Positions 2,021 to 32,987 are shown, counted from the whole stretch's first letter. The stretch is 63,931 nucleotides of DNA, filler included, from Hausera hauseri (GCA_046269625.1; 10 parts of 10 records of this genome joined end to end with filler, not necessarily neighbours in it), one strand, 5' to 3'. Translations and numbers: made by a program. Notes: generated by a model from the sequence alone, not told the origin.

Positions 2021-2079
2021 AATAAATTACTTCACAGTACGACGAAGAAGACGAAGAAAAGGTGAGACACAGCGAATTT

Positions 2080-3322: not shown

Positions 3323-3329
3323 ATCAATC

Positions 3330-3680
3330 AATCGAAAATCGTACGATGACGACGTTTGCTTATAGTTGAAAAGCTAGCTAATCTACCACGTTTTTTAAAG
3401 CCACTACCAGCGAATTGTTTTTTGACTGATTCAACGACTCCCAGTGCAGCGCTTTTTCTGCCAAGGTGGGTTCCTTCAGTGATGGTAAAATCGATTTGTT
3501 TTCATATAGTACGTCCTATGTTGTTTTTGCTGCCACGGCTCAAATACGTTTCAACACTGGAAATGCTAAATATGCCAATGGACGCAATCATCCAGAGCTA
3601 TACTGCTTACCAACGAAATACGGCAGTTAACCGCCTTGCTGGGGTTTCCTGTGAATGGAAACGATTTCAGAATCAATCAT
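3330..3680 (-). pseudogene. Small basic Polinton core (pVII-like) protein remnant
   Basis: Reconstructed frames read YFVGKQYSSG... and end GSGLKKRGRLASFSTISKRRHRTIFD; lies immediately upstream of the major capsid gene. Confidence 0.5.
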
Positions 3681-3689
3681 GTTCGTTTC

Positions 3690-4710: not shown

Positions 4711-4742
4711 TCGATGATGCTGGTGATGACTCAGTTTGTTTA

Positions 4743-5580
4743 TTATTGACGACTTCGAAAATGTAACGTCAAATGTGTCGTTGACCCAAACAGAAATTTA
4801 ATGGGTTTACAAAATTCATCAAGCATATACACGGAAATACTGTGCACAATATTCTTAGACAATGACAAGTAAATGGGTCTGAACATATTAACGCGAACAG
4901 TTTCACCCGATGTTTCGTACGTGTGAGAATCCAGGTCGATAGAAGCCAGTAGTTGTTTACGTTCTCCACCAACGTGTATAGATTGGGTTAAGTCCGTTAA
5001 AATGTTGATTCGGTGAAATGCTCCATAGAGTTGGGGTTTGTATTTGGCAACAGTAGATTGTCCAACAATGGTTTGATAGAATTCACATTTTGGATAACCC
5101 AGATTCCGAGCCAATAATTCATCAAAGGCAAAATATGTTACATTTTAATGTAGTGTAAGCGAAATATGACTATCTGAGTTTATTTTACATGTTTTTACAG
5201 CTAATGTAGCCGTTTTCTTAACGTATTCACACAATTCCAGTTCCGTTTCCATAAATAAGTCATATGGTACAATATACGAGCGAAAGACTGATTCTGACCG
5301 AATCCAGTTCACTGCAACTACGGTTGTCACATTAGAAGATAGGTTCAATTTTTCACCAATTATAACATGTCCACCTGGCCGTAGACCTTTCAAACGTATA
5401 TTGACTGATTGAAAACCCAATGCCTGAGCATCAGCTATGGATTCATACTGCAATTCCATGGGATGTCGATGTGTTAGTTTTATACGGTAGTTTGAAAAAT
5501 AAGCGTAAACCGAGAAATTGTATTGCTAATAATTGCGACGAGTATATTTGTTAGAGTCTCGGGTTAACTGTAAACGGCTT
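4743..5580 (-). pseudogene. Polinton minor capsid (penton-like) protein, copy 1
   Basis: C-terminal INILTDLTQSIHVGGERKQLLASI...RPIYLSL...VHSISVYMLDEFCKPIKF...LTLHFR is collinear with copy 2. Confidence 0.72.
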
Positions 5581-5625
5581 GAAATAGGGTATTTTTCTAG
5601 TCGGAGAAAGTAAATACCACTTTTC

Positions 5626-6615
5626 TCACGTATTGATTTGAGTGAAAATGTAATGTGTTAGATATTGTTTATTCGAATTATTGCCGTGTGAACATATAAT
5701 TTCCTGAATACGATATTCGTCGGGTTTCTCTGACGGTACTTGCAGTTCCTGTTCGTAGAATTTACCACCTATCTTCTCACCATTCCAAAACGTACATGAT
5801 GGGTGATTGTTTTGTGTTGATTGCTGAAATTTAAAATACTTCATCGCTCCAGTTCTGATTGAAATTCTTGATAAATGGCGTTTTCTTCAGCCGCGAAATG
5901 CATACATAATCGCCAATTCTATATTTTGGACGACAATTAACTGCTTATTGTCGGTTCTGGTAAAGCCACATGTCCAAATCATCAATTACATCAACCGGAC
6001 GTAATCCATTGATTCCTCAATGTGTCGCGTGATTGTATGCATGAATAATATCCGGAAGTACCTTTACCCTGCATTTATTGTCCTGCTTGGTAAAGAATTT
6101 GTTCAGTCGACCGTGTAGGATTCGATTAAATCGTTCAACGAGTGCGGCCTTGTATTGTGAAAATCCAGAGTAGTGATTTACACCGAACCGCCTGAAAACC
6201 GAGGCGACATGAGAATTGTAAAATGCCTTACAAAAGTCCGTTTATATGTGCTTTGACGGCTGTTGTTCAATTAATCTGTGAACGGCGTTGACAATCTCCT
6301 TACCGGATTTGGATTTGACTGCAACTGCACGTGCAAAGCGACTAAACAAATCAACTCATTCAACACGTAGCGATATCCATCGATAATGCTTTCATACGGG
6401 ATCATTTCCATGACAACCATTTGTCATACGTTGTTCACGCCTGCAGCACGGTATGCAAGAGTTGGAAACCGTTTTCGCCTTGGTTTGTTTAGGCTGTAGG
6501 CCAACTGCTTTCCCAACAAACGTTGGGTTTGTCGACGACTCTGCCGTACAGTCTTGATAGATTGTCGACGCGAGTATACCCTACGGGATGATGCGGATCG
6601 AACCACACGTCTATC
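5626..6615 (-). pseudogene. Polinton retroviral-like (rve) integrase with C-terminal chromodomain remnant
   Basis: WFDPHHPVGY...AYSLNKPRRKRFP...VDLFSRFARAVAVKSKSG...KAALVERFNRIL...AYNHATH...KYRIGDYV...NWSDEVF...IGGKFYEQELQ...YRIQEII; multiple stops and frameshifts. Confidence 0.9.
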
Positions 6616-6779
6616 ATCGGTGTTATCGATGTCGTTGTTGTTTGCATTACAACAAGTTGAACGAATCGTAAATGAAAGATTCGGTAAACTGGGACGAAAT
6701 GATGAAAACCAAGAACCCATACCGCCAAACATTGAATACTTACATAAATTGTTTCTACTGTTCACCCGAAGGGACCACC

Positions 6780-7076
6780 GATTAATGATGCGATGACCGG
6801 TAAAATTGCATCAAGGAATCCTCCATCTTGCTGGTACATGACCTCCCGTTTAAGTCATTTATTCCGAGCGTTGGCAAGGCTGATTAGTCGTTTTCGATAC
6901 TTTAATAAATTCCGCTTTCCATTACCAATGTCAACATGACTCACATCAAAATTGTACAAAATTTCCATTAAATCGTATACTAAAAATAGCGGGAATGATC
7001 GGAGCATGTTTTGCTTATGTTTTGTAGGTGACTTGAGCAAAGCAATAAAGTACGGCTGACTACGTTTGAATCGCAT
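6780..7076 (-). pseudogene. Small basic Polinton/adintovirus core-like protein
   Basis: DLMEILYN...LLKYRKRLISLA, then past a stop KREVMYQQDGGFLDAILPVIASL (QxGGFL motif). Confidence 0.65.
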
Positions 7077-7235
7077 TTTTGAACGTATTAATGCTGAAAC
7101 GTAGTTGTTTATAACCGCTACCACTGTGACGGTAATTGGCGTCTAGTCACTGCTGCTGCTGATGGTGTTCGAAGCACAGAATTGATTAATCGCCTTGATT
7201 AATCGCGGTTCGTTTGGAGACACGTTTCTTGCTCG

Positions 7236-7335
7236 NNNNNNNNNNNNNNNNNNNNNNNNNNNNNNNNNNNNNNNNNNNNTTAATTAATTAANNNNNNNNN
7301 NNNNNNNNNNNNNNNNNNNNNNNNNNNNNNNNNNN
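7236..7335. other. Artificial 100-bp contig spacer (N-run, TTAATTAATTAA, N-run)
   Basis: The same spacer recurs at 12015-12114, 21345-21444, 29029-29128, 34790-34889, 41479-41578, 49961-50060, 55093-55192 and 59890-59989, and gives stops in all six frames. Confidence 0.98.
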
Positions 7336-7878
7336 TCCGCAATTCCGTTCTAGACGAAATGTTTTCGACGACTGGAATCCAGACTTCTCCGAATTCTCTT
7401 TCTTTATTAACTTTAGTACCTTTTATCAGTCCGAGCTCGATTAGCTTCGAGGTATTCAAATCTATCGCGACGTTTGGTAGACGTCTTAATACATCACGTC
7501 CTAATACTACGTCGTTTTCTAAGTGTTCCATTATAGAAAATTCATGTTGAAATGTCTGTCCCATTATTTAAGATTAGAATTCCACTTGAATTTCGGTCTT
7601 GATTCTTGTCCGAAAGTTCCTACACTTCCGGGATCGGTTGCAAGTGGTAGTCGTAATTGATTGCGTAACATTTTTGGTATCGATCCGTCCTTTACGAATG
7701 ATTTCCCTGATCCGGTATCTACTAATGCGTATACTTTCCAATCTTCAATACTAATTTTGGCGAAGGATCTACCTTCTTTTATCTTAGGTTGTTTAACGAC
7801 TGATATTTTGTGCCGGTTCACGCTAATTTCTGGTGATTTATTCTCGGCTACTTGTCTTAACTCCTCAATGGGATACAA
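7336..7878 (-). pseudogene. Retropepsin-type aspartic protease
   Basis: KISIEDWKVYALVDTGSGKSFV active site, then after a frameshift FQHEFSIMEHLENDVVLGRDVL (hhLGxD motif). Confidence 0.88.
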
Positions 7879-8329
7879 TCCATTATTGAAACTATTTTCG
7901 TTGTCTCTTTTCGGCGCATTGATTAGCGGTTCTTGGTTGTTTTAGTTATGGAAGAATTGCATTTGTGGATTATCCCAAATTAATGATTTAGTTTCTGTAT
8001 TCCGTGAAATCGTTGGAGAGTATATTATCTTGCGATCATCTGCGTGGTGGCGGTATAATTCGGATTTTTCTCTGGTTCGGTACATTTTCCGTAACATGCC
8101 GTACTGTTTTGACCCTTCATAGGGATCTTCATAACTGAAAAACTTTTGATATTTTTCCCAACTATAGGAGTTAATAGATCTCTTACCGCTGTCTTCATAT
8201 TGTGGTGCCAAAGGGGACAACTTTGGCAAAGGCGGCCTAAGCGCCTTCCGATTTTGTGTTTCTTTGGCCTATAAAAAATATATATTTTCTCTTTCGTTTC
8301 CGATTATAATAACCAACGTGTCTCTGCAC

Positions 8330-10165
8330 GTCGCTCTTCCATATGTTTTCTTCGTAAGCTTTCAAAAATTTTCCGAAAGGTGTTATGATTGCGGTCAAAA
8401 TTTTACATGAAAATCCAGTTAAAGTAAATATTTCGTAGCTTTTTATAATAGACTAAATTATAGCCTTTATGAGTTGTACCAAAAAGTAAGTGGCTAAAAA
8501 TTCTGATATAGCTTGTCCGAAAATTAAAAATCTTCCCCAAATTTATGCAATATTTCTGTGGTGACTCTTTGATAATAATTGACGCCAAGTAAGGATTCCC
8601 ATTTTGCTTGGTAACGGGTGTTATCCATCACCGTTGACATGGCTCTATTTAGCTCATGTGTATGTTGTCGAGGGAAAGCCAAAAATTGTCTAAAAGCTTC
8701 GATCTCTTTTGGTCTGTAAATACCTTTACTTGCATTGTCAGCGAACTCATCGTCTGTTATACCTTTTAGTAAGTTTGTTCCGGTTAATTTGCCAGGCGTA
8801 GCTATTATTCCTCCATTTGGCAGACTTACCCAATTTGTCTCACTTCTCTTAAACATAGGCTCGCCTAAACCTGCTTTGCATTCTTTCAAGACACTTGGTT
8901 GTGTCGCGTTTTCTAGTAAAACTCTAGTGAGTGGCATATCCAATTGGGGTACGTTTTGATATATGTCCGGCAATTCTTTAATACAGCGTTTTTTTCCACG
9001 TTTAAAGATACGTCCCGTTTCTCACATTCGTAGATTAACAGAACTTCTCCCGTAACTCTTCCGAAAATGCCTTGTTTCATTGCAATTATTGGTGATGCTA
9101 GTTCTTGATTCGCATAGATTAAGGCTAGTTTGGTTCTCATGATTTCCATATCCAGTTTACAATCATTTGCAATCATTTTTTGATATAATTTTGCTAATCC
9201 GATTTGTTCTCTATAATAGAAGAAATCATCTCTATTTTTTAATTAATCTTCTATTCGTACGTCTTGTGTTTCCAATGTGAAGGTAGTCATTGCGGTTTCT
9301 TCCACGAAGAATGCTTCATTATTGGTAGCGTACATTACGTTGCATCGAGAGAGCATTTGTTTCTTAATAAATTTCAGTCCGTGATCCTCAGATATCAATA
9401 TCGTGGGTGTAGAGTGCTCAGCAACGTCCTTCCTTGGCCTGGCATTATTCTCGGTTGTCTACACCTACCTTTTTCCTGTGGTTTCGTTAAAATTTATCTC
9501 TTGTTTTAATAAAATTCCAATCATTCATAGGTGGTGGAGTCCAATTGACTATTGAGTTTTGAAAAGTACAGGCGCCATCTTGGATATGGCACTTCTGGTT
9601 TTCGGTATATGTTTTCGTAATACTATGGAACATCATCTTTTGATTCCTCATTTCTGTTTCGTAGAAATCGACTATTACTATTCCTGCTTCTCTTCCTTTT
9701 CTGGTATTGTGTTCATCTCCTTTACAGTATCCGGTGTGCATGTCCAGTTTTCCAATTGCTACTTTATACACTCGATTTATCTTTCCTGGTTGGACTTCTA
9801 GCTCTATTCCATCCCATCTCAGTCATCCGGTTTCGTTAGCCTGTTTACACTTGTCGATCTAAATCCATAGGAATTAGTGGAGTCGTCTGTTTTACTATCG
9901 ATGAATGTCCGTGCATGTTTCCGTAGTGGAAAATGCTTCACGGTCGTCGCAACATGCATTCTATTCCGTCTATTGCAATTAATTCGAGTTGCTGATACAG
10001 AAAATACTTTTTCTCAATGGTTACTAACTGGTGAGGTCGAGCATCTTCGCATAATTCCAAATCCATCAAGGAATATCTTTGTCCAACCTTAAACTTATCG
10101 CAGTCATATACGGTGACTGCACCGAGCTGTCTTATTAACATCATAAGTGTTATTAGTTTAATCAT
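8330..10165 (-). pseudogene. Chuvirus-like / herpesvirus gB-type (class III) envelope glycoprotein
   Basis: Signal-like MIKLITLMMLIRQLGA|VTVYDC; KCHIQDGAC; CKLDMEIMRTKLAL; GIFGRVTGEVLLIYEC; GIYRPKEIEAFRQFLAFP; C-terminal membrane region GRFLIFGQAISEFLATYFLVQLIKAII...TGFSCKILTAII. These are collinear with chuvirus G motifs. Confidence 0.82.
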
Positions 10166-12014
10166 CCAATTTGATTCACTGTCTCGCACTGAGTTAGTTG
10201 GCGTTAAATTTCTTACCACATCTTCAATCCTAGTGGTCAGCCTGTTTCCATCTTCGTCATCAAATAACTTGGACCAATTTATCTCTCTAGGTATCTTCCT
10301 AGCAGCTTTTCTGACTAACCCAATGGTCCTATTGAATTCATTTTATTTTAGAGGATTTGTTTTGATTGACAAGTACAATATTACTTTCCTAAATTCTTCC
10401 TTAGTATTCTCTACCATAATTTTCTCGATTAAAACTTCGTCAGATAAGTTGCTTTTATTCATTTTCAACCGAAATGTTCTCATAATCCTCGCAGCATCAT
10501 AATTGCTTTTTCTTTTTCGTCTAACATCTCGTCTCTCGGTTCAGAATAGTTTACTATTTTGATGATGTATCTAAGCAACCCGTTTAACTCTTCGCTCTCG
10601 GAGTTAATCGCGGGCATAGATAGTTGCCTTAGTTCTCGTATCAGGGCTGCACTTTGGTCAACATCATCTCTTATTTTTCTCGGCTTTCCAACTGGTCGTT
10701 TCTGTTTCGGCGCAGTTGGTATTGCTTCACTCATCGGTACTAGATTCTTGTCGTATTGTTCCTTATCTTCTTCATTCTGGAGGTAGTCAAAATACATGAC
10801 AGTGTCTATGACTCCCATAATGCGTCCTACAAAGTGTTTATCTCTTGCTTTTCTCGTAGCCTCTTCCTTTGTCTGTTCGTCGGTAATTATGGCCACTATA
10901 TGGTTTGTCTCTTCCGGAATAATTTCAACATCTATTAGCAGTTTGGGTTCGTATAGTATTCTACCTCTGACATATAATCGGTAATTTACTTCATCTTCTC
11001 CACCGTTTCGTACTATTCATTATTTTACTGCTCTAACCGATATCATCGTTTTACATTCAATTTCTTTTTCTTCCATCCATTCATCTGATACTTTTTACAT
11101 TAACCGTCATTTCGGGTTTAGTTTTTAAGAATTCAGCGTATTTCTTTATTAGTAATCCGGGTACTGATCTACAAACAGTATTTTCGGTTGATAATTTGGT
11201 CAATGTATGGATCAATTGTCTCAGTTTTCTCTCCATCATGTTGACGTTAATCTGCTCAATTAATTCTCTTTCGGCTAGTGCGGGATTTGATATCATTTCC
11301 ACATTAAATCGTCGATCGATTTGAAGAGTATCCATTGGTTGAAGTTGGATGGGCATTTTGGGGTTTTGGTTGTATAAATCTTCCAAATAAGTATCCCATC
11401 CTAAGTCATCTGTAACATGTGGAATTCCACAATCTAACAATGCCATAGGCGTGCTTTGTGCATTTTCACGGATTTCATTCAGTCTTGGCTGTATTTCCTT
11501 CATCAAGTTAGTGCGAAATTCTGCTCCATTTCCGCACGCAAGTTGTATAGTTTTTAGTGTCGGTCCTAATTCATCTGTAGGAAATAACCCTTTCCTTTCA
11601 TAATCCGTTTATTCGGTCGTCACATCCATTAACCATCTTTGTACGACTTCTCTTTTATTCGCTAACTCTAATTGCGTGACCTTATATTTATTCTTATAAG
11701 TCTCCTTACCTAATTAATCAAGTTTCGTAGCCCTTTGCTTTGTGCAAATCCGCAATTCTTCTAGCTCCTTGACTTGAGTTATCAATTGTCGTGTCTTATT
11801 GTCGTCTATTTCTGCCATTGTCGATAGTAGTGAAATTAATTCGCGCATTTCTTTTATATTTTTCGAACCTGGGTCTATTTCTTCAATCAGTCTCTTTACG
11901 AATTTAGCTTTATCTGGTGTGAGGCGATAATCTTTGTTTATTTCTATTAATTCAGCGTGACCATTCTGGTCGGTATCTGATGCCCACTTAAAAAGATGAT
12001 GTAGATAATTTAGT
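10166..12014 (-). pseudogene. Unknown charged/helical polyprotein region upstream of the glycoprotein
   Basis: ORFs 11081-11506 and 10480-10896 and their flanks join through isolated stops and frameshifts; the last segment runs in frame into the glycoprotein signal peptide. Confidence 0.55.
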
Positions 12015-15907: not shown

Positions 15908-18434
15908 TCATACTACACATAACAACTGTATGACTTCTGCACGAATGTCGGTTTTAGTAATGTGGAATCCATGCACACACATTTTGAAATAACCGTATAA
16001 TATATAGTACAATGACTGTTGATTGAACACAATTAAACGCATATTTTTCGATTCTTACTAATAATACACGCTGTTGAATCTATTTCAGGCTTTTTGTATG
16101 TTCTTTCTTCAGATGTATTGATATGTAACTTAATTACCATCTTTCTACAGCTTTGCAAGTGGCTTCTTTTGCTTTTGAATTTCTTCTACCATTGTATTTT
16201 TTGAAATGTTTATTATTGTCAACTGAAGTAATTTCATTAAAAAGAAAAAAGAAATAAAAAGATTGCTGAAGCACCGACGTCTGGAAAGATATTTATATTT
16301 GTTTGTATTGAGTAGTTTATATTCTTTAGATTTTGGAGATTAACATTTATCATATTTTGCATGTGCTGAGAATGCTTTTTAAAATTGTTCTAAGATATTC
16401 TTGGATGTTCATGTTTGCCGCAAAACAGATGTGAATGAGAATTAAATGCCGATATTGTACGATTTCTCGGATCGTGTCTGTTTTTGTATAGGAATTTTTG
16501 TTACATGCTAATACATTTTCGTCAGAATAAAATTCATTTCAGTTTCGATATCGTATTGTTTTTTTTTCATTTTTGATATTCCACAGTATTACATAGTAGA
16601 CAATAAACTTATTGCTCCATTATCATTAAACAACAATTAGGTATCAATTCTAATCTTTAGTTGAATATAGAACACACTGTTTTACAAATACATGTTTCAT
16701 CCGTATTTAACCGAAAATCGACAAACTTTCCGGAATTCGTCAATCTTATTGTTGTGCCCAACAAGCGCCGTTTATTGACTTCTAAATACACTGTTATTGT
16801 TTTCCTTATTTGCTGTTATCTTTTGTTATCTTTTTCTGCCGACGATTTGATGCACTTTTGCAGTTTTATATCACCGTGACAAAATACAGCAACGCTTAGC
16901 CGCAACCGTCAGATCTGAACCACAACAACTCAGATTTACAGCGATCAAGAATCAAGGAATCTCTAAGATGTTTCAGGAGGCTTTTTGTTTCAATCGTCAA
17001 AGAAGAATACACCCTGACGTTTATAACCAAAACGCACTGATTCAATTACCTAACGCAGGCTATCAGTTAAACGAAATATCAAATATCGATGACATTACAA
17101 AATTCATGCTTGATGGAACAAGTCGCATAATGCTTCTACTGGTTGTACAAGATGTTGCTGAAAGTAACATCTCTGTGATGAAAACCAAAAGCAAAAAGCT
17201 AAACCATTATCCTCTGACACATCTCGATCTTTTCGATCTGACTTAAACATTCCGGATAAACGATTAATTATTGAGGCATAAAATTTTAAGTCAGTGGTCA
17301 AATTTAATTAATAAAACAGCAGTTTCATTTAAACTGGCGTCGTTTTTTGTATAAGGGATAAATTGGATTTTTCTCTGCTTTACTTGGTCTAGAATATTGT
17401 GGAGTTTTAGTTTGCTTTTAATACATAGGTCAGATTCTATAATTTCCTATTGTTGGCCAAGAAAGAAACAACCGATATTGACTGTAGACAAAATTCAGTC
17501 TAGAAATATTAAAGATATTGTAAAATCGTTTGCGTTGACAAATTAGTTAAAAATGTATTGAATTTTGAAATTTAAACAAATAATAAATTAGCAATTGTTA
17601 TATTTGTTGCTTTTATGTGGTTCATAATGATGGGATTATTTAAAATCCCTGACTAAACACAGAAACTTCACTCATCAAGTAATCGTTCAATACGATGTAG
17701 CTCGTCGTTTATAGCCTACTCTAATTTACTGTCGATGTCGGATATCCTAAAGTCGTAGCGGTTATTCTGGTTCGAATTTCTTGTCGTGAAATTTATGTAA
17801 GAAAATTGTGAGTAATTCTTCGTGTCTAACGGTTCATATACAGTCGTAAAATAAGAATTTTGCAATTTCGAAAATTTAGACCAATAGAAATTCAAATATT
17901 GAAATTCGAAATTTGTCACAGTGACTATCCGAGTACGTTAATCACCATCTTGCGACTTCGTGCAATAAATTTTAGATGACTAATATGGGTCATCTTGGAA
18001 TATCCAAATTTTATTTTTAAAATTTCCAATGTACTAATTAATTAGAAAATAGAACTTTATGATAAAATAAAATATTTTAATATTGAATTAAATTAAATTT
18101 TGTTTTACTTTGAGTTAAATTTTATTTCATATTACTTTAAGTTTGACATTGAAATATTTAATAAAATGTTACCAATTATTTTTGGTCTTTTATGGAAATG
18201 TATCAATTTTATCCCAAATTCCATATGAAATATTGAAATACTTAATCTAAATTGTTGCAATTTATTTCTGCTCTTATATTGAAATATACCAGTTTTGTCC
18301 CAAATTCCATTTGAACTTTACCTTATTTGCTTCTTTACCCGGAATTGGGAAAAATGAAAAAAAATATTCATATATATTTTCAATTATACATTTGTCTTTT
18401 AGTTTACCCTTTATTTAATGTTAACTAGTTACTC

Positions 18435-18797
18435 AGTTACTTTGCCGTCATTGGCTAACACATTGTGTATATTATAAAGAAATACAGGAGATACCCATCA
18501 GGGGTTTAACACAAACAAACACAAAAAGACGTTTACATATATACAAGGGTTTATTATTTATACAGAATATTAACATCCTCATAGCCAAATTTGTTTGAGT
18601 TGCACAATTTTGAATTAAAATATTATTGCCAATACTTTGTTAATTTTGAATCACATATGCTTTTATTTCGGTTCATATTTGTGGATTCGGAGTAGATTCG
18701 GATTACATTGAAATTTCGCGCTCCGCTTTGGGTTCGAATACATTGTGTCTGAAATTTTGATTTTTGTGTTTAGGCGGAGTTAATTAAGGAATCCTAA
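18435..18797. repeat. Diverged block shared with 22291-22635 (contig 4)
   Basis: Collinear TTACT..GCCG..TTGG.TAA, GATACCCATCA, TTTAACACA, TTTATTATTTATAC and ATTAAGGAA motifs with similar spacing. Confidence 0.75.
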
Positions 18798-21444: not shown

Positions 21445-21521
21445 GATTCAATTATTATTTTCCTTTCGTCTCTCCCTTAATTTGGATAGGCAGCCTTTTC
21501 TGAGTGTAAATTCAGCGTGTC
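21445..21521 (+). repeat. 77-bp exact terminal direct repeat, left copy
   Basis: GATTCAATTATTATTTTCC...AATTCAGCGTGTC is identical to 28952-29028. Confidence 0.97.
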
Positions 21522-22290
21522 AGTTCAATTCTCCACATACACGAATATTTTCACAAAAACCCATTGTGGTAATTCTGTCTGGACTATTTAATACGCAGCT
21601 GATTGTTTTATAATTATGTATTTGTGTGCAGTGTATAACGATATGTATATATGCACATTTGTGCACGTGTATGTAAATATATTTGTATGTAAATCTGTGG
21701 TGGTAAGGCAAAGCAAATTACCTGCACCCTAGATCAAAATTAAAAATGACACAGTCTTTCATATGAAATTATTTCGATTCAATCATAAGAATTCATCTTT
21801 ACTACTAATAAGAAATACGCATGGATAATGACACGAAATCATTGCAATGTTGCATAATAATAGAATTCTATCGTAAACGTTTATTTATTCGATCATTTGT
21901 ATAAAGGCAATATTATCAAAATACTAAATGATTGTACAAATCGTTCGGAATCTTGTCAAAATAATAAGTGGCGACATAACTGATGTACACTCTACTTATT
22001 AATTAAGGAATTTGAAGGTGAAGAGTTTATAAAGTTTTGCATTTTATACATATTTATTACATTTTAATAAATCCTTCTCATATGCTAATTATGTCGTCGG
22101 AACCTTACTTCTGCTAATTTTATTGTAAGATGGAATCTGAGGAATGAAGAAACAGTACCTGGCACTTGCTCATTATACCACATATTGGTAATTGTACATC
22201 GTGCGGTACATAACGCTCGTTATCGCCATGTGTTTGTCATGTACTGCAATATTAACACTTGTGTATTTTGTATTTACTTAATTATTTAAT

Positions 22291-22635
22291 CATTACTCTA
22301 GCCGCCTTGGTTAATAATGTTTGTATAAAATGCAGCAGTGGTGGTGATACCCATCAATGGATTTAACACACATCAAAACTAGAAGGCATTCAATTATATA
22401 AACATCGATTTATTATTTATACACAGATATTCACATAGTCAGTGTTACTTGTTAGAACTGTAAAGATTTCGAATCATAAAATTATAGTTAATGATGTAAC
22501 TGTTTTTTGGATAACACAAGTAAATGTTATCGTATATTCTTCTTCATCCTGAATTGGTTTTGGTGTTTCGGGATCAAATCGAGTTATGGGTTTTTGGAAT
22601 TCGTATTTAGAGTGATTTTCATTAAGGAAATTTAA
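22291..22635. repeat. Diverged block shared with 18435-18797 (contig 3)
   Basis: GATACCCATCA at 22346, TTTATTATTTATAC at 22409 and ATTAAGGAA at 22621; overlaps the small minus-strand ORF 22474-22659. Confidence 0.75.
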
Positions 22636-23792
22636 CAAAATATAGGCTTTGGGATGCATTAATTAAATTGCAACTTTTTAAACCATCAATATTACAAATA
22701 GCATAATTCTGAAATTATTTCGGCAGATTTAAAACTTTGTTTCGAAAGTACTAAAACTTATATTCATTACCAAATACTTTAATCGAAATGCCCGATATCA
22801 ACAACAATGAAGGTACTGCAATAAGTGGAAAAGATATTGGAAATAACTAATTGGAGTTATTCACAATATTTGTCAATTCTAAAGACTGTTTTGTTAAATG
22901 AATGAAAGATTTTGCAATTTTTATTTCACTTTTATCTTATAACATTCAAAAAAATTGTTTGATAATAAGATTTTATGGTAAATACTAACATAAATTGAAG
23001 ATGTTTCATGATTTACTAACACTTTCATATTGCCATAGAATAGAAAATAAGTTTTATCGATAAGTTCAACATAACAATTAAATTTTTTGAAATTTTAATT
23101 GGATAAATTAAATTTTTACTTTAACAGTATATAAATAAATAATTGTTTGTGTAAATAATAATTTGAATTAAAAATTTATAGTGATTTATTGAGTATTTCC
23201 GTAATAGAATATTGATAAGTGAATGAAATGTAATAAATAAAGTAATTCGAACTTTATTATTTTTTAATGTTTCAATTTAACAACTTCATATATAAGAAGT
23301 TAAAATGGCATTTTTGCCATTTTTATTTATAATATCTATTTAACAAATCCGTGATAGTTCACGGAAGAAAGTTTACAAAGTAAAAATGTGTAAGGAAGTT
23401 CTTAAAGAATTAAACTTTCAGAATGGAAGATTATTCAAAGTATAATTGTTATTGCATGGAATAATTAATACTTGTTCTAATGAAAACATTTTACTGCTAA
23501 AGTATTGATAAAGATATTTCAAAAGATTCTGAACTTTAAAGATTGATTTGATTAAGGTTTAGCAGGTGAATATCAATTGATAAATTAATAGAAATTAAAT
23601 AATGATTGTAAAATTGTTAATTTTGGCTTTATTGCGCACTGTGAGATAAACTATAATTAATCTTTATTGAAAACATTTAAAATCTATCCTCATCTTTCAC
23701 AAGAATGAATATTATTCGTTCAATACAAAACTATAATAAAAGTAACAAATAGAAAGATACAAAAGTTTTTTATTGAACATAGAAATAAACTT

Positions 23793-25922
23793 TTATGGTA
23801 ATACTTTATTTACAATTTTTTCACCAAGTCTGTTTGAAGCTATCAATCTAATATGTTCAACACATTTTTGTAAACCTTCTAAATCCGAAACGGTCTCAAA
23901 ACTCTTTCTGAAAAATGAGGAACACTCTTCACTTACAAATCGTTCAAGAAATTCTGCCAAAAATTCCCAAAACTTTGGCACATCCTCAATTATATCATCC
24001 GCATTGTTTATTAATTTCTGGATACTATAAACTATATCTTCTACTTTTAAAATGTTTAACTGTTCCGCTCTGAAAATATAGTCTCCCAAATTTCTTCTGC
24101 AGCTTGCATTTTTTTCCAACATATCGTCAATCCATTTTGTCAGAAGCTGTTTTGGATTTTTGATAAACTTTAATGACTCAATCATTGCATTTCCCAATGA
24201 TATTTCATAAAATAATTCATTTTCAGAAATGTTTTTGATATTTTCGCTTTCTCTATTCGGCTCTTCATTGACTACATATGGTTTATTTTCCTTATTTGAC
24301 TTCATTGTGTTACAATCGGAATTTTTACTGTTATAATAACGTCTTGATGAAATCTTCAAATTTCTAACTTCACCTTTTTGATAGCACTCTGTTTTTGATT
24401 CATTATTCCAAGCATTTCTATGATTGTTAGAAAATGTTGCTGTTCTGTTTGCTTTTGGAAACTGGATTTCATTATCGTTTTGTAACTCTTTTAAGGTTTT
24501 CGGATCAACACTTTTCTGAGCTGTTCTTTCGGTCCATTTTCGCTTGCGCATGTCCAAAACATCTTTTACTTTAAATCTGTATCTTGTTTCTAACGTGTTC
24601 ATTCTACTTAATTGTTCTACGTCTACCATTAATTCATCAAATCTTTTAGCAAAATTATTTTCAAGTATTTTTCCACACCTTTCTAAGATAATACAAATTG
24701 AATTTATATTATCAAGATTAGTCACGTTTTTCAACAGTGATTCTAAACATCTGATGATAACGTTTCCGTTTAAACAGTTTTGAATAAACAATTCAGAAAT
24801 AAATCTCATATTACCGAAGTAATTATCTTTTACTTGACATATCTTTTCTTCAACACTCTCTTGATAAAGTATTTTCATTCTTTCATCTTTTTCCTCGTCA
24901 ATACGTTTTCTCCAGTTTTCTCTTTCAATTTCCATTAATTCAGTTAAATTTGATTCAAATAAGGTTTTGCACTTCTTCAAAATCAGCGCTTTAAAAGACA
25001 ATGTATCGCATTTCAAATCAAATATTCGGCAACAAAACCGAGAATATACTTTTGCATATCCACGCTCCTTTATTGCTTTACAAAATATTTCGTGGCTCAA
25101 AAGTTCAAGACTACTTTCATCAAAATATCTACATGTTTTCAATTCATTCAAACATGATTCGAAATTCTCTGGTGCAAGCATGTTGAGTATTTTAAGAAAT
25201 CTTCTTTTAGTATTTTCACTTTCATTCTCATTTTGAGTTCTTTTATGTGGAACTTTATAACTATTTTCATATTGCGTTTGTTTCTTAAGTTTTGTAGTTC
25301 GCCACTCACCCGCAGGTTCTACGCATTGATGATTCAGAAATAATAATTTTACTGGTTTCAAAGATAAAATTGACCTAAGATTTTCATTGCTAAATGACAA
25401 ATGTTTAGGCCTTTCTCTACAGAAACTTAATTTTTGAAGTTCTTCTACCGTGTACGTCTTTATCTTTTGTTTTTTACTTTCCACCATTCTATTGGATTCT
25501 GAATATATACTTTCTGTTTTACTCATGTCATTTGCAGTATCTTCACACAAAGTTGTATTTAAATCACGTATTTTTTCAATGTTGCAATTTGACTTTCTAT
25601 TAAAGTCTATTGCAATTTTTGTTACCGGATCTAAAACAACTAACGGTTTTAATTCTCTTTTGCATGACTTAATTGTCGTCACCGGATCCAGAACAACCGA
25701 TTCTCGTTTTGCCGGATTAAGTGTTATTATTGGATCCAAAATTGTTAGAGGTTTGAATTCTCTTTTACTGACATTACTTTGATTATGCTGAATTTGATTT
25801 TTATAAACGACATCAGAACCATTGTTAAAATGCAATATTGATTTTGTTTTCGGATCAACAATTGTTAGTGGCTTGAACACTCTCTGGCTCAATGTTTTTT
25901 CATTCATTTGATTCATATTCAT
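23793..25922 (-). CDS. eIF4G: Divergent intronless eIF4G-like translation initiation factor (PABP-binding-like repeats, 4E-binding-like motif, MIF4G, partial MA3)
   Basis: 709-aa intact ORF. MIF4G: ILNMLAPENF...IFCKAIKERGYAKVYSRFC...FKALILKKC...GNMRFISELF...RYRFKVKDVLDMRKRKW. MA3-like: LEKNASCRRNLG...ADDIIEDVPKFWEFLAEFL. YTVEELQKL motif. AATAAA follows the stop. Confidence 0.9.
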   Translation of the reverse strand: MNMNQMNEKTLSQRVFKPLTIVDPKTKSILHFNNGSDVVYKNQIQHNQSNVSKREFKPLTILDPIITLNPAKRESVVLDPVTTIKSCKRELKPLVVLDPVTKIAIDFNRKSNCNIEKIRDLNTTLCEDTANDMSKTESIYSESNRMVESKKQKIKTYTVEELQKLSFCRERPKHLSFSNENLRSILSLKPVKLLFLNHQCVEPAGEWRTTKLKKQTQYENSYKVPHKRTQNENESENTKRRFLKILNMLAPENFESCLNELKTCRYFDESSLELLSHEIFCKAIKERGYAKVYSRFCCRIFDLKCDTLSFKALILKKCKTLFESNLTELMEIERENWRKRIDEEKDERMKILYQESVEEKICQVKDNYFGNMRFISELFIQNCLNGNVIIRCLESLLKNVTNLDNINSICIILERCGKILENNFAKRFDELMVDVEQLSRMNTLETRYRFKVKDVLDMRKRKWTERTAQKSVDPKTLKELQNDNEIQFPKANRTATFSNNHRNAWNNESKTECYQKGEVRNLKISSRRYYNSKNSDCNTMKSNKENKPYVVNEEPNRESENIKNISENELFYEISLGNAMIESLKFIKNPKQLLTKWIDDMLEKNASCRRNLGDYIFRAEQLNILKVEDIVYSIQKLINNADDIIEDVPKFWEFLAEFLERFVSEECSSFFRKSFETVSDLEGLQKCVEHIRLIASNRLGEKIVNKVLP

Positions 25923-26620
25923 AACACAAAGATAGTTTATTATACTAATCTTTCACAAATGGCTTCGAAATTTTCATTTAAATTAATTCTTTATAATAAT
26001 ATTGGATAAATGTGAATCCCATTACAGGTTCTAATGTATAAGTTAAAATTTACAAATTTAACATTCATATGTTAAAGAATGGTAATTTTGTGTTTGAAGA
26101 ATTTAATGAGATAAAGTTAATTTAAAAAGGTCAAATTAACTTTGTTGAAATATACACCTAATTTTAATTTTCAATATAAACTTTTGGTGGAAAGGGTTTT
26201 AAGTAATTTATAATTTTGAAATAAAATTGAAATATCATGGAATAATAATAGCAAATTACAATATTACATAATATAAACGAAGATGTGTATTAACACTAAA
26301 AATATAAGATATCTCTTTAAATATATAGTTTGTTTGTATACTAATATTATTGCGGTTTAATTATTTTAATATAATAAATTAATTATTTTAAAATTATTAT
26401 GATTTTGAAAATTTTATTATAAACCGTAACATGGTAATACTATTTGATTTAATACGTTACAATATTTGACCAATCGTTGTACATTGACGTTGGTAAGAGC
26501 CACTTTATTAACAAATAATAAAACTATTTCAATTTATTTAATTATACAATAATCTCTTACTTTATATTCTGATGAAAGTTAAATAACCTAAGATAGATTT
26601 TATGTCTAACCAATGATATG

Positions 26621-27713
26621 TAGGGGAGACCGGGGCAGGTTGTAACAGTTACTAAAACAAGCCAAACATTTATTGTAATTTAGTTATTTATCTATTAGCA
26701 CATCCGTTTGGCACCAGCTGATAATGCAAAACTAGAGACAAGCGTATAGTTTTCGATTACTATACAGTATTGCAGGTTTGTTAAATTTTACTTTACAAAG
26801 TATTATTTAGTAGTTTTGATTATTTCTTTCTCTAATTTAAACCTGTTTGTCGATTTTGGTATCTATATAGTCAAACATGTGCAAATATATAGTGACTGCA
26901 CTGCCTTAATTACGAGATGGTAGTATTTTCAGTTTCGTTGCTGTAGACTGCTGAAGTTATGCCTCAAGGCTGGGGCAGATTGTAACATTGTAGTGCAATG
27001 TAGGTTGCAATGCGTTACAACCTAGCCCGATGTATTTTGCAGCAAAGTTCACTATAATCGTACGCATTGCTGCTACGGTATATAAGCCTAGTGTATGAAC
27101 TCCGTATAAACATGTACCGTATAGAGATATAACCATTTGATTTGCATCAATATTATGTAAATATATATTTTTTAGAATGAAAACTATAAAAGAAAGACAA
27201 TTAGAGGAAACGCGTCGAATGACGAAATTGAGGCTGCCGTAAACAGAGTGATTGAAAATAAAGAATCAATTCGAAAGGTAGCCAGGGAGTTTGGCATTGT
27301 ACAAGTCACTTTCTTTCGATAAATAAAGAAGGTTCAGGCGAGAATAACAAATAAAATGCCTGCCAAACTGGATCAAGTTGGCTATATCCCAAATCGTCAA
27401 TTTTTCACACCGGCTCAATTAGCTGAACTTGATAACGTATATAACTGCTTCACGCAGTGAAATTAATATTGTTACAACCTTCTTCGGGAAGTGTTGCAAC
27501 TTGCCCCATATCTAAGGTTGCTTGTAACACAAGTGAAGACCTTACGAAAGCTTATATCTTCTGAACATTAACGTCTAGCCGACCGTATTATTCACTATAC
27601 GTAGACCGATATTGGTTGATTAATAAGCGCTGATATCTATTTTAGAATATATCACTACAGTCCGCTAAGAAGGATAAAGCAAAAATTGTTACAAGTTGCT
27701 CCAGTTTCCCCTA
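26621..27713 (+). mobile_element. Pogo/Tigger-like non-autonomous deletion derivative
   Basis: TA-flanked imperfect TIRs (TAGGGGAGACCGGGGCAGGTTGTAACA / TGTTACAAGTTGCTCCAGTTTCCCCTA), subterminal GTTACAAC repeats, and an HTH-psq remnant EIEAAVNRVIENKESIRKVAREFGI near 27180-27440; no DDE domain. Confidence 0.85.
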
Positions 27714-28951
27714 TAACATATTATATATTTAGATGGCTTCATGAATTTTGTAACTAATTCTGCAAATAGAAAATTTGAAGGAAAATTAAATTAAAGTCAA
27801 ACTTAAAATTTGAAGATGATGAACATTAAAGTTTCATAATTATTAATCGTCATTTTAAATTTTTTGTCACTAAATAATTGTAAATTGATTTATTTAAAAA
27901 TTATTACTGTCCATAAAGAAATGAACTAGTTATATGTTGGTTCATTTTATCATTGAAAACAAATATACAAAATTAATTAAAGAATTCAGTTAGAATCTCT
28001 TGTACTATTTGGATATTGAAATTACAGAATATCAATTTCCCAAATTAAATAAAGACATTTATAACTGTTTATTGTGCGTTCCAATTTGGTACAATTTTGG
28101 AAAATTTTTGACAAAATTTCTTTGAAGATGAAATATATTTGTAACAACTTAAGAAATTTCAAAGTTTTTTCCAGAAAAAGCTATTTAATATAGAAGTAAT
28201 CGATTAGTGGTCAACGGACTTTTATAAAACCTGGAAGTAACATAGTATTCATCATGTTGATTATTCAACATAAATGAAAAATGGCTACAGATAAAAATGG
28301 CTTCCATGCTGAAGTTGCAAATTTGTAACGGATTCTATCCTAGTCAATCATACACATTAAATATTTTTACTAATATAAGTTGAATATAGATTTTATTATA
28401 TATGAATAAAGACGGATTTGCTCGGCAAAATCCGCGGATCAAAATCCGGAGTATCACTTGGCTTATTATCGCACATTTTAACTCAAACTGAATTCGAATT
28501 ACTTTTAAATTATATTTATTTTAATCCTAATTTTGAAACAAATTATAAATACATAATAATATTACTTATTATTTATTTTTTCTGAGCCATTAATATCCAT
28601 TCTCCTTTATGATACTTGTTCACTCTAAAATTAAACATTTTTATTTACATAAGTTGCATATAGATTTTATTATATATATGTACACAGTTTTTCAACTAAT
28701 AGAAATTTTCATTTCGAAAAACACAATTCGAAATATGGACTACTCCAAATTCATACACTGTTGTTCACGTTGGAGAAGTCTAGTTTGGTAGTAACGATTC
28801 CTCTTTCCCATATATGAATTTTTATATCCATAAAATAAATATACGGTGATAATAAAATAGCCAAACCAAGACCTTAAATTTTGGAAAGTCTGCATAAAAA
28901 TTGAATGTGGGTGTTCGAAAAAGGCTTTTCATATAGTACTTGAAAAACATT

Positions 28952-29028
28952 GATTCAATTATTATTTTCCTTTCGTCTCTCCCTTAATTTGGATAGGCAG
29001 CCTTTTCTGAGTGTAAATTCAGCGTGTC
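28952..29028 (+). repeat. 77-bp exact terminal direct repeat, right copy
   Basis: Identical to 21445-21521. Confidence 0.97.
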
Positions 29029-29341
29029 NNNNNNNNNNNNNNNNNNNNNNNNNNNNNNNNNNNNNNNNNNNNTTAATTAATTAANNNNNNNNNNNNNNNN
29101 NNNNNNNNNNNNNNNNNNNNNNNNNNNNGAAAATGGAACAAATATATTGAACACCATATCCATATTTAAAACAATTGCCGAGATGCACACACCAACTTTA
29201 CACACACCGTTCATAATTTCGCTGGTGAGTAACAAACAGTTTTATTAATGCAGCTGTTACTATTTCCTAGGTAAAGATAGAATTACATTTAGGTGAGTAC
29301 TTCGTTATCCAATTTATAGTAACATATAAAAGAAATCTTCT

Positions 29342-29566
29342 TTATAGAACCTGAAGGGGAAGTTCGCTGGCGGTTCGGTACGTAAAATACCTGCGCCTTT
29401 GTTCATTAAACGTATAACAATAGGTTACGTAATCCTCGTAGTTAGACACGTCAATGTTACGTACTTGCTCTATATTTTCTTCCATCAGGCACTCAACCTT
29501 TTCCTTCTGTGACCATATGTCGGTGTTGTGTTTATAACTTAACCAATATGTTCCCTGCTCAGGCAT
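29342..29566 (-). CDS. Putative small orphan protein
   Basis: 74-aa ATG ORF with globular-like composition in very AT-rich DNA; no recognised motif. Confidence 0.25.
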   Translation of the reverse strand: MPEQGTYWLSYKHNTDIWSQKEKVECLMEENIEQVRNIDVSNYEDYVTYCYTFNEQRRRYFTYRTASELPLQVL

Positions 29567-29619
29567 AATGTTAACTATGTTGCAAATACGTTCGTTTCAT
29601 TTGTAATTTTATGAATATT

Positions 29620-29795
29620 TTCATTATGTTTATAATTTCTCAAATGAGTTCATGATGTTTATAATTCCACAAATATGTTCACCTTTTAGGCATAGGCCGT
29701 AATGATATGTTCATTATGTTCATAATTTCTCAAATGAGTTCATGATGTTTATAATTCCACAAATATGTTCACCTTTTAGGCATAGGCCGTAATGA
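29620..29795. repeat. Tandem duplication, 90-bp period, about 2 copies
   Basis: TCATTATGTT...GGCATAGGCCGTAATGA at 29621 and 29711. Confidence 0.92.
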
Positions 29796-30075
29796 AATTA
29801 AATTTTTTGCCTTGCTACGCTCATTCATCCAATTAGTCGTAATCATCTAATTCTTCATCTTGGATCTAGAATAATATTCCTTAAATGTTTATAGATATCT
29901 AGATCGATAGGATTTTTACATCGCGGTTTTGTATGCACATCCATGTCCCATTAACGTTGACTTCAAACATAAAATGCATTTCTTCTGAATAATTATTACA
30001 TTGGTGCATCAAATATATAGAAATCGAAATTCATACGACTGTAATCTAATACATAAAGTTTAAATTGAATTTAAA

Positions 30076-30430
30076 TTTACAAAATATAATTTATCAAATT
30101 ACAAACGTAAGTCAGTTGGGAAAGTCTATAAAAGGGTAACATGGTTATTGTAAATTCCATCATTCCATCTAAATAGGTCAGTAGGTAGGGTAGTGAAAAG
30201 GGTAATATTATGTCTTTGTACATTCTGCTTATGGATGTGTCGAATCTTTATTATAATGGATCCTTTAGTCATGTTATTATCGTAATTATTTGTACTTTAC
30301 AAAATATAATTTATTGAATTATAAGCGGTTGGGAAAGTCTATAAAAGAGGTAACGTGGCTATTGTAAATTCCCTCATTTAATCCAAGTCGGTCGACATGT
30401 CGGGCAATAAGAAGGGTGGTATTGTATTAT
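30076..30430 (+). repeat. Diverged direct repeat of about 135 bp containing TATA-like boxes
   Basis: TTTACAAAATATAATTTAT...GTTGGGAAAGTCTATAAAAG.GGTAAC.TGG.TATTGTAAATTCC starting at 30076 and 30296. Confidence 0.8.
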
Positions 30431-31779
30431 TAAGGGAATTGTCATTCAACTCAGAAATATATTAAGAAAGTAGTCCATTCTCTTCTGTCGTAATTTTACA
30501 CCGTATACTACGTATATACACAATATCAAGGTAAAATATTATCAATAAAGGTTTTAAGAAACAATCATACAAAGATATACACACACTTTACGTTAAATTT
30601 CATTAAGCAAGTTAACTCCCAAAATTAACGATAACAATAATCAAGGTAATAGACGATCACCGATCGAAATGAGTATAGTTAGTCTTAATCCTGCGATTTC
30701 AGTTAACCAGTTAAAGTACAACACTGTTTTCCACATTCTATACTCCGTTATTCAGCGATCATCCATTATCATTATACTTTCTATGTTCTCGAATAGGATC
30801 TTTCATTCATTACTTTTCTCAAAGTTTTGTCAATGTATTCTATTCAATTTTTTCGTCATGCTGACCTTCATTTCGTTGGATCTCAACTTCTTTCGTCTCT
30901 TTTCTACTCATCTGAGCATATAACATATCTCCGCATTTACAGGCGATCGTGTATGACCATCATCTAAAGTTAAATTCTCCCCTCTTAAAATTTAATTCTT
31001 GAGTACACAGGATTTTATATCGTAGCCGACAAGAAAATAATTATACAATTATACTATTAAATAGTCTAAAGATATAATAAATAGGATCATCATAATATTC
31101 TATTAATCATTCAATCTTAATCATGTAAGTATGTTGCTTCCCAGTAATTATTCTACTATACCAGAGTTCAATTAATTTAAGATCTCTTGGTACCATATAT
31201 TCAAGGGTTACGTCTCCCCTTTCTGATTGACACAGGAAAAACCATGAATTTCTTTCATTCATCTTTGGCCAATCCTCAATGATCGTAGGTTGCAGGAGCT
31301 TCCCAGAAATCCGTGTGCGATAACACAAGACTGTCTAAGATTATTTTATATTTTTTCCCACCATGTTCCACCATAGTCTGACCGATGTCTACGCATATAA
31401 CCTGAAACCAACTTGCAAACTATATTCGTCTTTCAATTTATGATTTAAAGCTTTATTGAATACAAAATATATACAGCAAAAAATGAAATTTCAATAAAAA
31501 GAGAGTAAACACATAACAATCAAATTTTTACCATCTCCTTGGCCGTTGGTGTTCGAGAAAGAATTATTTTCTGCAGAATTATTCATTGTAACTAAAGTTT
31601 ATTGATATAAATAAGATATTTACTAGACCTACTAAATATTTTCGTAGGTAGATGATTGTTCCCGAAAGCTTCTCTGTATCAGTGTAAGTTGAATATTGAA
31701 TGTCGAATGTTGAAAATGTTGTCTTATCAAAATGCCCTGCCTATTTATACTTAGTGCGAGTCATAAATTGGTTTTCCAA

Positions 31780-31955
31780 AATTCAATTTGCCAATTCACA
31801 CAATGGATATAATAACGTTAATTTGACGGTCTTTGATTTTTTAAAATCCAATTTACCAATTCACACAATTCAATTTGCCAATTCTCACAATGAATATAAC
31901 AGCGCTAATCTGACGGCCTCTGATTTTGAAATCCAACCTGCAAACTCACACAACG
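31780..31955. repeat. Imperfect tandem repeat, period about 87 bp
   Basis: AATTCAATTTGCCAATTC.CACAATG.ATATAA...TGACGG.CT.TGATTTT repeated. Confidence 0.8.
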
Positions 31956-32528
31956 AAGTTGACCTAACGACCCTTAGTTTCTGACTAAAACCGTTATCTA
32001 TTGTATTATAATTTTTAAATTCAATCTGCTGATTCGCACAAACAACCAAACAATTTTCAAAACACGAAACCGACGAAACCGAATAGTCTATATTTTGCAC
32101 AATTGAATAATTAAATGTACTAAATAAATTTGCCATTAAATGCATCAAATGGACCCGTAAGCTCATTGAATAACGCACCAAATAAATTTTGCAAAAACAA
32201 TTCGAAAACGCACCAAACAAACCCGCGGAACAAACAACTCCAAACATTGCGAAACTAATGTATAATTGAATAATCTGCGTTTTTTTTAAAACAACTCACA
32301 TCTCTCGGTGGCAGCAATTGTATAATAAAGAGAAAAGGGTCACAAATAACTCACAATCGACAGTTGATAAAAACGCCCATCACGGAGGCTCGACAATACA
32401 TATGCGCAACGTTTTATAATGTTTCACAAAAATATCTGTCAATAAGTCACAACATTTTATAATGTTTCAAAAATATCTGTCAATAATCGAACTATTTGTT
32501 AAATTGCTGTTAGTGTTTTTCTGAAGGT

Positions 32529-32987
32529 TTATTGCCGGATAATCCATCCTAACACAGCAATGATAACAATAATTAGTAACACAAGCGAAGGCTTAAGTTC
32601 GAGTTTCTTTAAATATATACTGGTGGGATACTTGAGTACGATAAATCGTTCAATTGCTAGAATAGCCAGAATCCAAAAGGAAGTATCCGTAAAAACGTAA
32701 GAGGCATAATGATGTAACTTACAAACGATATTACTGATCGTTCGAATGTCAAACCCGAACATGTAAATAATGAATAGTCGTAATCCCATTATGAGTACTG
32801 CTAATTCATCGGATACTGATTCGCTAATAAGAAACACGCGAGTAAATGTTTTTACTTTTGTTTGGGCTTTAAACACAATTATGCAAAATATGTTTCCGAA
32901 AAGACCAATTATAACAGTAATCGTTATGATCCATTTGTAAATATTAAAAGCTGTTGAATCGGAAGGATTTACGCGTGATAGGTTCAT
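32529..32987 (-). pseudogene. Class A (rhodopsin-like, peptide-receptor-like) GPCR, truncated after TM4
   Basis: TM1 IIGLFGNIFCIIVF, TM2 FLISESVSD, ECL1/TM3 CKLHHY...WILAILAIERFIVLKYP; the ORF stops just after the fourth hydrophobic segment. Confidence 0.85.

Follow-up and report, generated by a model that had tools for sequence, protein, structure and literature searches.

The window analysed here is a stretch of 63,931 nucleotides, filler included, from Hausera hauseri (GCA_046269625.1), in which ten contigs are joined by spacers. One of these contigs, 21445-29028, carries an intronless gene, P0001, that encodes a paralog of the translation initiation factor eIF4G, and the contig closes on itself as a unit of 7,507 bp. 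The features of the unit and of P0001 are listed by position in the window (aa, amino acid residues of P0001; ORF, open reading frame; X1, a sequencing run).

21445..28951, no strand: self-closing unit (circle or perfect tandem unit) of 7,507 bp, 28% GC; the eIF4G ORF makes up 28% of it
28952..29028, no strand: terminal 77-bp copy of 21445-21521 (assembly overlap), an exact match
23793..25922, minus strand: intronless eIF4G paralog P0001, 709 aa plus the TAA stop, with MIF4G and MA3
25851..25886, minus strand: PAM1-type repeat 1, aa 13-24, moderate match (10.9 bits, p 0.003)
25731..25766, minus strand: repeat 2, aa 53-64, core intact and flank degraded, weak match (5.9 bits, p 0.03)
25683..25709, minus strand: repeat 3, aa 72-80, with a 3-residue deletion, outside the top 8 profile windows
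25626..25661, minus strand: repeat 4, aa 88-99, full-strength match (24.3 bits, 0/5000 shuffles)
25434..25454, minus strand: degenerate eIF4E-binding motif YTVEELQ, aa 157-163; Y and L kept, arginine at +2 replaced by V, phi position Q
24537..25202, minus strand: MIF4G (HEAT-1), aa 241-462, by Pfam and structure match
23796..24236, minus strand: MA3 (HEAT-2), aa 563-709, C-terminally trimmed and without W2 after it
27176..27460, plus strand: broken HTH_psq-type transposase remnant (Pfam HTH_psq, E 1e-4) with an in-frame stop; extra summed depth in X1
28276..28781, no strand: dispersed repeat shared by many other X1 contigs; summed depth about 2,400-2,500 in X1, compared with about 54 over the ORF
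22204..22456, no strand: second dispersed repeat, with its part 22278-22436 resembling (71%) 18421-18576 of the window, on a different contig

The frame of P0001 contained no internal stop, and the other two frames of the minus strand held 67 and 94 stops. At the local base composition, a stop-free run of this length has a probability of about 3e-30. An AATAAA was located about 18 nt downstream of the stop codon. The Pfam search placed MIF4G at aa 241-462 (E 1e-13, above the cut-off) and MA3 at aa 584-667, the latter with 22.3 bits, just below the cut-off of 23.2. No W2 domain was found in P0001 by Pfam and the stop lay directly after MA3, no further exon having been sought by RNA. The structure of P0001 was modelled with AlphaFold2 from an alignment of 41 sequences. 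The predicted local confidence score (pLDDT) was mostly above 90 at about aa 240-460 and 580-700, which form two helical domains, and the N-terminus and the linker were disordered. The model matched human eIF4G HEAT-1 (8huj_B) with Z 25.5 and a root-mean-square deviation (rmsd) of 3.8 over 230 aligned residues, and its aa 563-709 matched human HEAT-2/MA3 (1ug3_A, residues 1241-1398) with Z 16.5 and an rmsd of 2.9 over 146 aligned residues. According to the available text of PMC12709193, human MA3 comprises residues 1235-1426. Because the match ends at residue 1398 and the human domain at 1426, about 28 C-terminal MA3 residues are absent from P0001. The closest solved relatives were human eIF4G1, eIF4GII and DAP5, and by its modelled fold and its descent P0001 is an eIF4G. 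A previous interpretation made from the DNA alone (the sequence-only reading) had described an eIF4G ORF with a shortened MA3, then the stop, and no W2; this was borne out by the ORF scan, Pfam and the structure match. The 709-codon frame has stayed open at 30% GC despite an identity of only 34-39% between the MIF4G of P0001 and those of its nearest relatives, and both domains of the model fold confidently, which implies long purifying selection.

The sequence-only reading had also claimed four PABP-binding-like motifs. The four repeats are real and their multiplication is specific to P0001, but one is strong, one is moderate, one is weak and one is broken. They were scored with a profile of 20 columns made from 17 other eIF4Gs, with P0001 left out, and anchored on the vertebrate-type eIF4G P0159, whose residues 321-343 match the PABP-bound peptide 4f02_C. 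Under this profile true PABP motifs scored 11.6-37 bits in leave-one-out runs, and repeat 4 was within this range. At the DNA level, repeat 2 was 73% identical to repeat 4 over 48 nt, and repeat 3 was 81% identical to the core of repeat 4 over 21 nt. Because of this similarity, the repeats are taken to be local internal duplications. Repeat 4 is likely the ancestral PABP site, still a putative one, and repeat 3 is probably non-functional. The full-length eIF4Gs compared, four from the trematode clade and one from Macrostomum, had one PABP motif apiece. Among 16 relatives from the clade of short paralogs described below, some of them partial, the motif was present in P0014 alone, in one copy. 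The fish record P0142 had two copies, so motif duplication is rare but not unique. The repeat region of P0001, searched alone against the PDB sequences, gave no match. A count of proteins with at least two motif windows was discarded, as its threshold of 2.4 bits was at chance level. In P0014, short repeats at aa 60-122, with a PAM2 match below threshold (E 0.0017), lie N-terminal to the single PAM1-type motif; these PAM2-like repeats are predicted to be a second way to add PABP contacts.

The motif YTVEELQ aligned in register with the eIF4E-binding motifs of the relatives. The phi position was hydrophobic in 32 of the 33 relatives having it and is Q163 in P0001, and the +2 arginine, likewise kept in 32 of 33, is V159. 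The sequence-only reading had noted a Q at the phi position, and the alignment agrees with it; the damage is specific to P0001. In helix 1 of MIF4G, position 248 was K or R in all 39 relatives and is M in P0001, and position 243 was K or R in 29 of the 39 and is L in P0001. When aligned with 1hu3, residues R240, L243 and M248 of P0001 fell on a basic patch of human eIF4GII, which we take to be needed for eIF4A binding. By sequence comparison, the PABP repeats, the damage to the eIF4E motif and the loss of the conserved lysine are P0001's own, unlike the loss of W2.

A representative search with P0001 gave 2,590 matches, of which the best 150 were used. In a FastTree phylogeny of 153 MIF4G domains, P0001 grouped with short proteins in a clade next to the eIF4Gs of Macrostomum and trematodes. 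With IQ-TREE and 35 chosen MIF4G domains, the group of Macrostomum, trematodes and the short-paralog clade was supported at 100/99 and the short-paralog clade itself at 98/98, while its sisterhood with trematodes reached only 88/69. The clade members were 627-821 aa (MIF4G plus MA3) or about 390-470 aa (MIF4G only) in length, and five of them carry UniParc identifiers. Because all four other long members also end just after MA3, the loss of W2 is a family trait. The term "minimal eIF4G" used in the sequence-only reading can stand, but the W2 loss and the trimming of MA3, common to these four paralogs, were not engineered in P0001. Its proposal of altered Mnk control is perhaps moot, as the aligned canonical flatworm eIF4Gs have a W2-like tail already without the terminal acidic segment of the three non-flatworm rows.

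The fragment P0033 keeps the canonical eIF4G linker motifs, which are lost in P0001, and branched below the short paralogs (90/88 and 91/95, with one exon of contig L002). The gene at 543-1187 of L002, an eIF4G of canonical type and of the same lineage, is interrupted by two short GT-AG introns; L002 comes from the same metagenome as the contig L001 treated below, and over the exon that they share the gene and P0033 are 78% identical. The other L002 exon grouped with the paralogs, and both exons make short rows. An intronless host-lineage eIF4G with the same repeats had been named as evidence that would speak against the sequence-only reading; the canonical-type gene of L002 has introns, so the reading is not refuted on this ground. 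The host would be a free-living flatworm, probably a triclad, as judged from these sequences. Scans of IMG/VR gave no relative of the P0001 eIF4G, nor did scans of GTDB. The nearby retroelements and the gene-poor loop had suggested an insect or parasitoid (polydnavirus) origin, which was dropped, as the trees give flatworm descent. The clade member P0022 is recorded under an Aeromonas metagenome-assembled genome, as a hypothetical protein on a contig of 1,195 bp, and is probably a binning contaminant there.

An exact 77-bp terminal overlap was found only in contig 21445-29028 among the ten contigs of the window. In both run X1 and run X2 a single unitig spanned the junction from 28951 to 21445, with depths of 46 and 6, respectively. 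The window itself may derive from X1, so independent evidence for the junction comes from X2. The X2 copy of the unit showed 0-2 differences per piece of 0.3-1.7 kb, and the single listed coding difference in P0001 was a change of V to L at codon 400. In X1, the four long unitigs of the unit had depths of 42-66, including 4,412 bp without a difference or branch, and the unique pieces of the neighbouring contig had depths of 5-8 and 15, with alleles differing by up to 7%; the ratio of X2 to X1 depth was about 13% for the unit and about 1-7% for shared repeats, a difference that suggests variable copy number, and both the amplification and the variable copy number are hints, as the tool warns that unitig depth is not equal to copy number. 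Runs X3 and X5 held only pieces of 152-222 bp of the unit, with 0-1 differences and depths of 2.4-3.7; because these could be carry-over, they were not used to define a host range. In X2, X3 and X5 no reads covered the unique parts of the neighbouring contig, which proves nothing by itself.

P0001 is the only intact gene on the unit, which is 72% non-coding. The HTH_psq remnant, presumably pogo-like, is host-type transposon debris. No viral gene (Rep, superfamily 3 (SF3) helicase, capsid or integrase) was found with Pfam among the 33 non-eIF4G ORFs of at least 40 aa, the small ORFs that overlap the gene being unscanned. The consensus of a nonanucleotide replication origin had six matches in this AT-rich DNA, none of them atop a stable hairpin (best -3.5 kcal/mol), and the longest inverted repeat was 38 nt at 74%. 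Rfam gave nothing in the window or in L001. A scan of the window for bacterial promoters was set aside as irrelevant and at chance level.

A relative of P0001 was found on a second unit of this kind. The metagenome contig L001 (5,997 bp) contains a unit of 2,990 bp twice, head to tail; the copies are identical over 52-2957 (2,906 bp) and differ only in the junction microsatellite. Two genes lie on it.

L001 195-1439, again at +2990: MIF4G-only eIF4G paralog of 406 aa, a clade member with an intact eIF4E motif
L001 2170-2872, again at +2990: Dcp2-like gene, frameshifted, with Dcp2 box A and Nudix domains

Of 18 candidates, 12 proteins form the mini-Dcp2 family to which the Dcp2-like gene belongs; 11 of the 12 were intact, with lengths of 231-241 aa and identities of 50-69% to P0203. 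The contigs of mini-Dcp2 genes were 0.9-6 kb where a length was given, and those of short eIF4Gs were 0.9-4.6 kb. P0025 was 93% identical to the L001 eIF4G and P0203 was 88% identical to the L001 Dcp2; the two share their three sources, in which their contigs measure 4.6 and 4.5 kb, and they may be the same linked pair as on L001. Of 521 pattern matches in the metagenome scan, 3 were confirmed, and these lay in two loci. Head-to-tail structure was seen in both units examined, that of P0001 and L001, which is a small sample. The flatworm origin, the looped and amplified contig, the lost MIF4G lysine and the Dcp2-bearing sister unit were all absent from the sequence-only reading. Dcp2-like sequence was not found in the window. 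Against IMG/VR the mini-Dcp2 proteins gave only generic Nudix matches, and against GTDB 80 generic bacterial Nudix matches were kept.

P0001 was compared with known systems. With the canonical metazoan eIF4Gs (human eIF4G1 and eIF4G3, and those of Macrostomum lignano, Schistosoma and Clonorchis) it shares the folds and the order of PAM1-type motif, eIF4E-motif position, MIF4G and MA3. It differs from them in being intronless and only 709 aa long, in its multiplied PABP motif, and in the loss of the linker motifs and of the helix-1 lysine. Set against eIF4G1 in particular, P0001 has MIF4G, MA3 and the PAM1 sequence, but not W2 with its AA boxes or the YxxxxL-phi motif, and it sits on a looped, amplified unit. 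Germline-specific paralogs of initiation factors, such as eIF4G2 of the Drosophila testis, are lineage-specific copies of a core factor, as is P0001. The planarian germline eIF4E paralog Smed-eIF4E-like is needed for oogenesis, and the available text of the source mentions no amplified or circular unit for it (PMC5544531). According to the available text of PMC12709193, eIF4G2 (DAP5, NAT1, p97) is a scaffold of the eIF4G family that lacks a canonical eIF4E site; P0001 is alike in this. DAP5 retains W2 and is devoid of a PABP site, whereas P0001 shows the reverse and descends from a flatworm eIF4G rather than from DAP5. The vIF4G of Mimivirus (R255, PDB 9E5A) matched the fold of P0001 with Z 16.4 and an rmsd of 3.5 over 203 aligned residues, at 10% identity. 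It is a highly truncated MIF4G scaffold with a cryptic eIF4E motif, according to the available text of bioRxiv 10.1101/2025.09.30.678621. The giant virus that encodes it also has a vIF4E and a vIF4A of its own, whereas P0001, a flatworm paralog, is the sole intact gene of a gene-poor unit. PEVE is an element of about 7.5 kb that encodes Rep- and helicase-like proteins. Both PEVE and the P0001 unit are flatworm elements, but the latter has no Rep or helicase gene among the scanned ORFs and no long inverted repeats. In the available text of PMC3198968, PEVE of the planarian Girardia tigrina is an extrachromosomal virus-like element that was not found integrated. Searches of an open-access library gave nothing on expanded short eIF4G paralogs or on mini-Dcp2 in flatworms, supplements being outside the scope; planarian gene tables there may list them.

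The explanation that we prefer, with a probability of roughly 0.4, is an amplified self-joining unit, likely a host-derived free circle, with an intronless eIF4G paralog predicted to be a PABP-avid competitor of canonical eIF4G. An eIF4G mRNA would have been retro-copied early in the flatworm lineage from an intron-bearing gene, and the copy would have lost W2 and diversified, with copies ending on short amplified units. Most clade relatives, which keep the eIF4E and helix-1 sites, would act as minimal eIF4F scaffolds, much as the available text on the mimivirus vIF4G describes for that protein. P0001 would instead have gained PABP motifs and lost parts of its eIF4E and eIF4A sites. It is predicted to grip PABP through one to three motifs and to bind eIF4E and eIF4A weakly, so that it would tie up the PABP of poly(A) tails while leaving the loop to the cap open. 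Competition with canonical eIF4G would then dampen closed-loop, cap-dependent translation. The competitor role is proposed because PABP motifs were gained and parts of both other sites were lost. For this predicted role as a decoy the odds are slightly worse than even; a predicted cap-independent positive scaffold is unlikely, and a relaxed or decaying protein slightly more unlikely. As to the form of the unit, we infer physical circularity and lean modestly towards a free circle over a tandem array.

Several observations weigh against this explanation. Unitigs from short reads look the same for a free circle and for a homogenised tandem array, and those of the unit break at dispersed repeats, where the ends of an array could hide. 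No replication origin was found, nor any sequence shared with L001 outside the coding region, and L001 is the only DNA unit of a relative that was examined for head-to-tail structure. Residues R240, N247, K282, E286, R447 and F450, which we assume to face eIF4A, are kept in P0001, and with these positions kept, binding of the helicase may persist. Some eIF4E ligands tolerate the loss of the +2 arginine. The branch of P0001 (1.14) is the longest in the clade, and P0001 departs from the outgroup consensus in roughly half the conserved columns (42 of the 83 listed, 13 of the 42 being gaps); such divergence would fit relaxed selection as well as re-purposing. The host was read from gene phylogeny and from a spiralian-like gene for a G-protein-coupled receptor (GPCR) on another contig, for which clusters of Rotifera, Cnidaria and Mollusca gave no more than a lead.

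The same data were weighed under other explanations. The unit could come from a chromosomal head-to-tail array of the retrogene, an ampliconic cluster in which P0001 would be a tissue-specific scaffold, probably of germline or yolk, that promotes selected mRNAs with little dependence on eIF4E. Identical tandem copies would give the same loop, but no variant was seen among the copies over 4.4 kb, compared with up to 7% between neighbouring alleles, and the two samples differed by only about 0.1%. The unit-to-repeat depth ratio, which differed between runs, argues weakly in the same direction. The host-type transposon and repeat debris on the unit would suit an array, as would the five clade proteins with UniParc identifiers, by which the family is present in deposited gene sets, and the need of planarian oogenesis for a germline eIF4E paralog (PMC5544531, available text). 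The MIF4G and MA3 folds, intact in the model, favour a working scaffold, and the damaged eIF4E motif and M248 speak against one. We consider the array unlikely, though far from negligible. A decaying retrocopy under relaxed selection, with the repeats as chance internal duplications and the amplification as a neutral by-product of repeat recombination, is very improbable. It would account for the longest branch in the clade, for the losses at otherwise invariant sites, for the two weak or broken repeats among the four, and for the frameshift in the L001 Dcp2 copy, but not for 709 codons kept open at 30% GC, with a MIF4G only 34-39% identical to its nearest relatives, and two confidently folding domains.

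In another explanation, which we regard as improbable, the unit belongs, as one segment, to a so far undescribed multipartite system of free-living flatworms, either a DNA virus or a plasmid, in which captured eIF4G and Dcp2 would control host mRNA and replication would be supplied by other segments or a helper. Both units examined are head-to-tail, and on L001 an eIF4G is linked to a decapping enzyme. The 12 mini-Dcp2 proteins on contigs of 0.9-6 kb and the recurrence of short eIF4Gs on contigs of 0.9-4.6 kb point the same way, but high-copy host arrays also yield small metagenome contigs. Giant viruses use a truncated eIF4G (bioRxiv 10.1101/2025.09.30.678621, available text), yet the viral eIF4G-like folds were only 11-21% identical to P0001 and the tree follows flatworm descent. 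An extrachromosomal virus-like element of planarians is known (PMC3198968, available text), yet Rep, helicase, capsid and integrase were not found among the unit ORFs of at least 40 aa, no convincing origin stem-loop was seen, and the unit, being 72% non-coding, holds host repeats. A related and bolder proposal, that free-living flatworms carry a system of small DNA circles (3-7.5 kb; a multipartite virus or inherited plasmids) encoding mini-eIF4G and mini-Dcp2, with P0001 as a multivalent PABP trap, is doubtful.

Planarians serve as one of the main models in stem-cell and regeneration research. Should the units prove to be free circles, they would represent a gene-carrying animal plasmid, or else segments of an unknown DNA virus with captured genes of cap and tail control; as arrays, they would form an ampliconic module for translation, probably a germline one. 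In both cases, P0001 would be a natural experiment on closed-loop initiation, with more PABP sites, predicted weaker eIF4E and eIF4A sites and no W2. The looped, amplified setting and the sister unit with eIF4G and Dcp2 make the case more notable than the odd protein alone would be.

The rest of the window was also surveyed. The GPCR gene is of the rhodopsin family (Pfam 7tm_1, E 2e-11) and lies on the minus strand at 32529-32987 and 29129-29243, split by an insertion of 3.3 kb; X1 also holds a form of it without the insertion (joint 29243 to 32550). The region 1-12014 is made up of two contigs of broken short ORFs, which we take to resemble remnants of DNA viruses or Polinton-type elements, and at 8524-8937 there was a weak match to a viral fusion glycoprotein family (E 0.022). 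The contig at 34890-41478 is almost wholly pyrimidine-rich microsatellite with many N gaps, and its long ORFs are artefacts. Four consecutive ORFs of 145-275 aa on the plus strand at 56357-59403 gave no Pfam match at E 0.001; the second and fourth are alike near their C-termini, by eye. Several ORFs of non-LTR (long terminal repeat) retroelements, with RVT_1, endonuclease, RNase H, DUF4780 and PHD finger domains, were present at 41579-55092 and 59990-63931.

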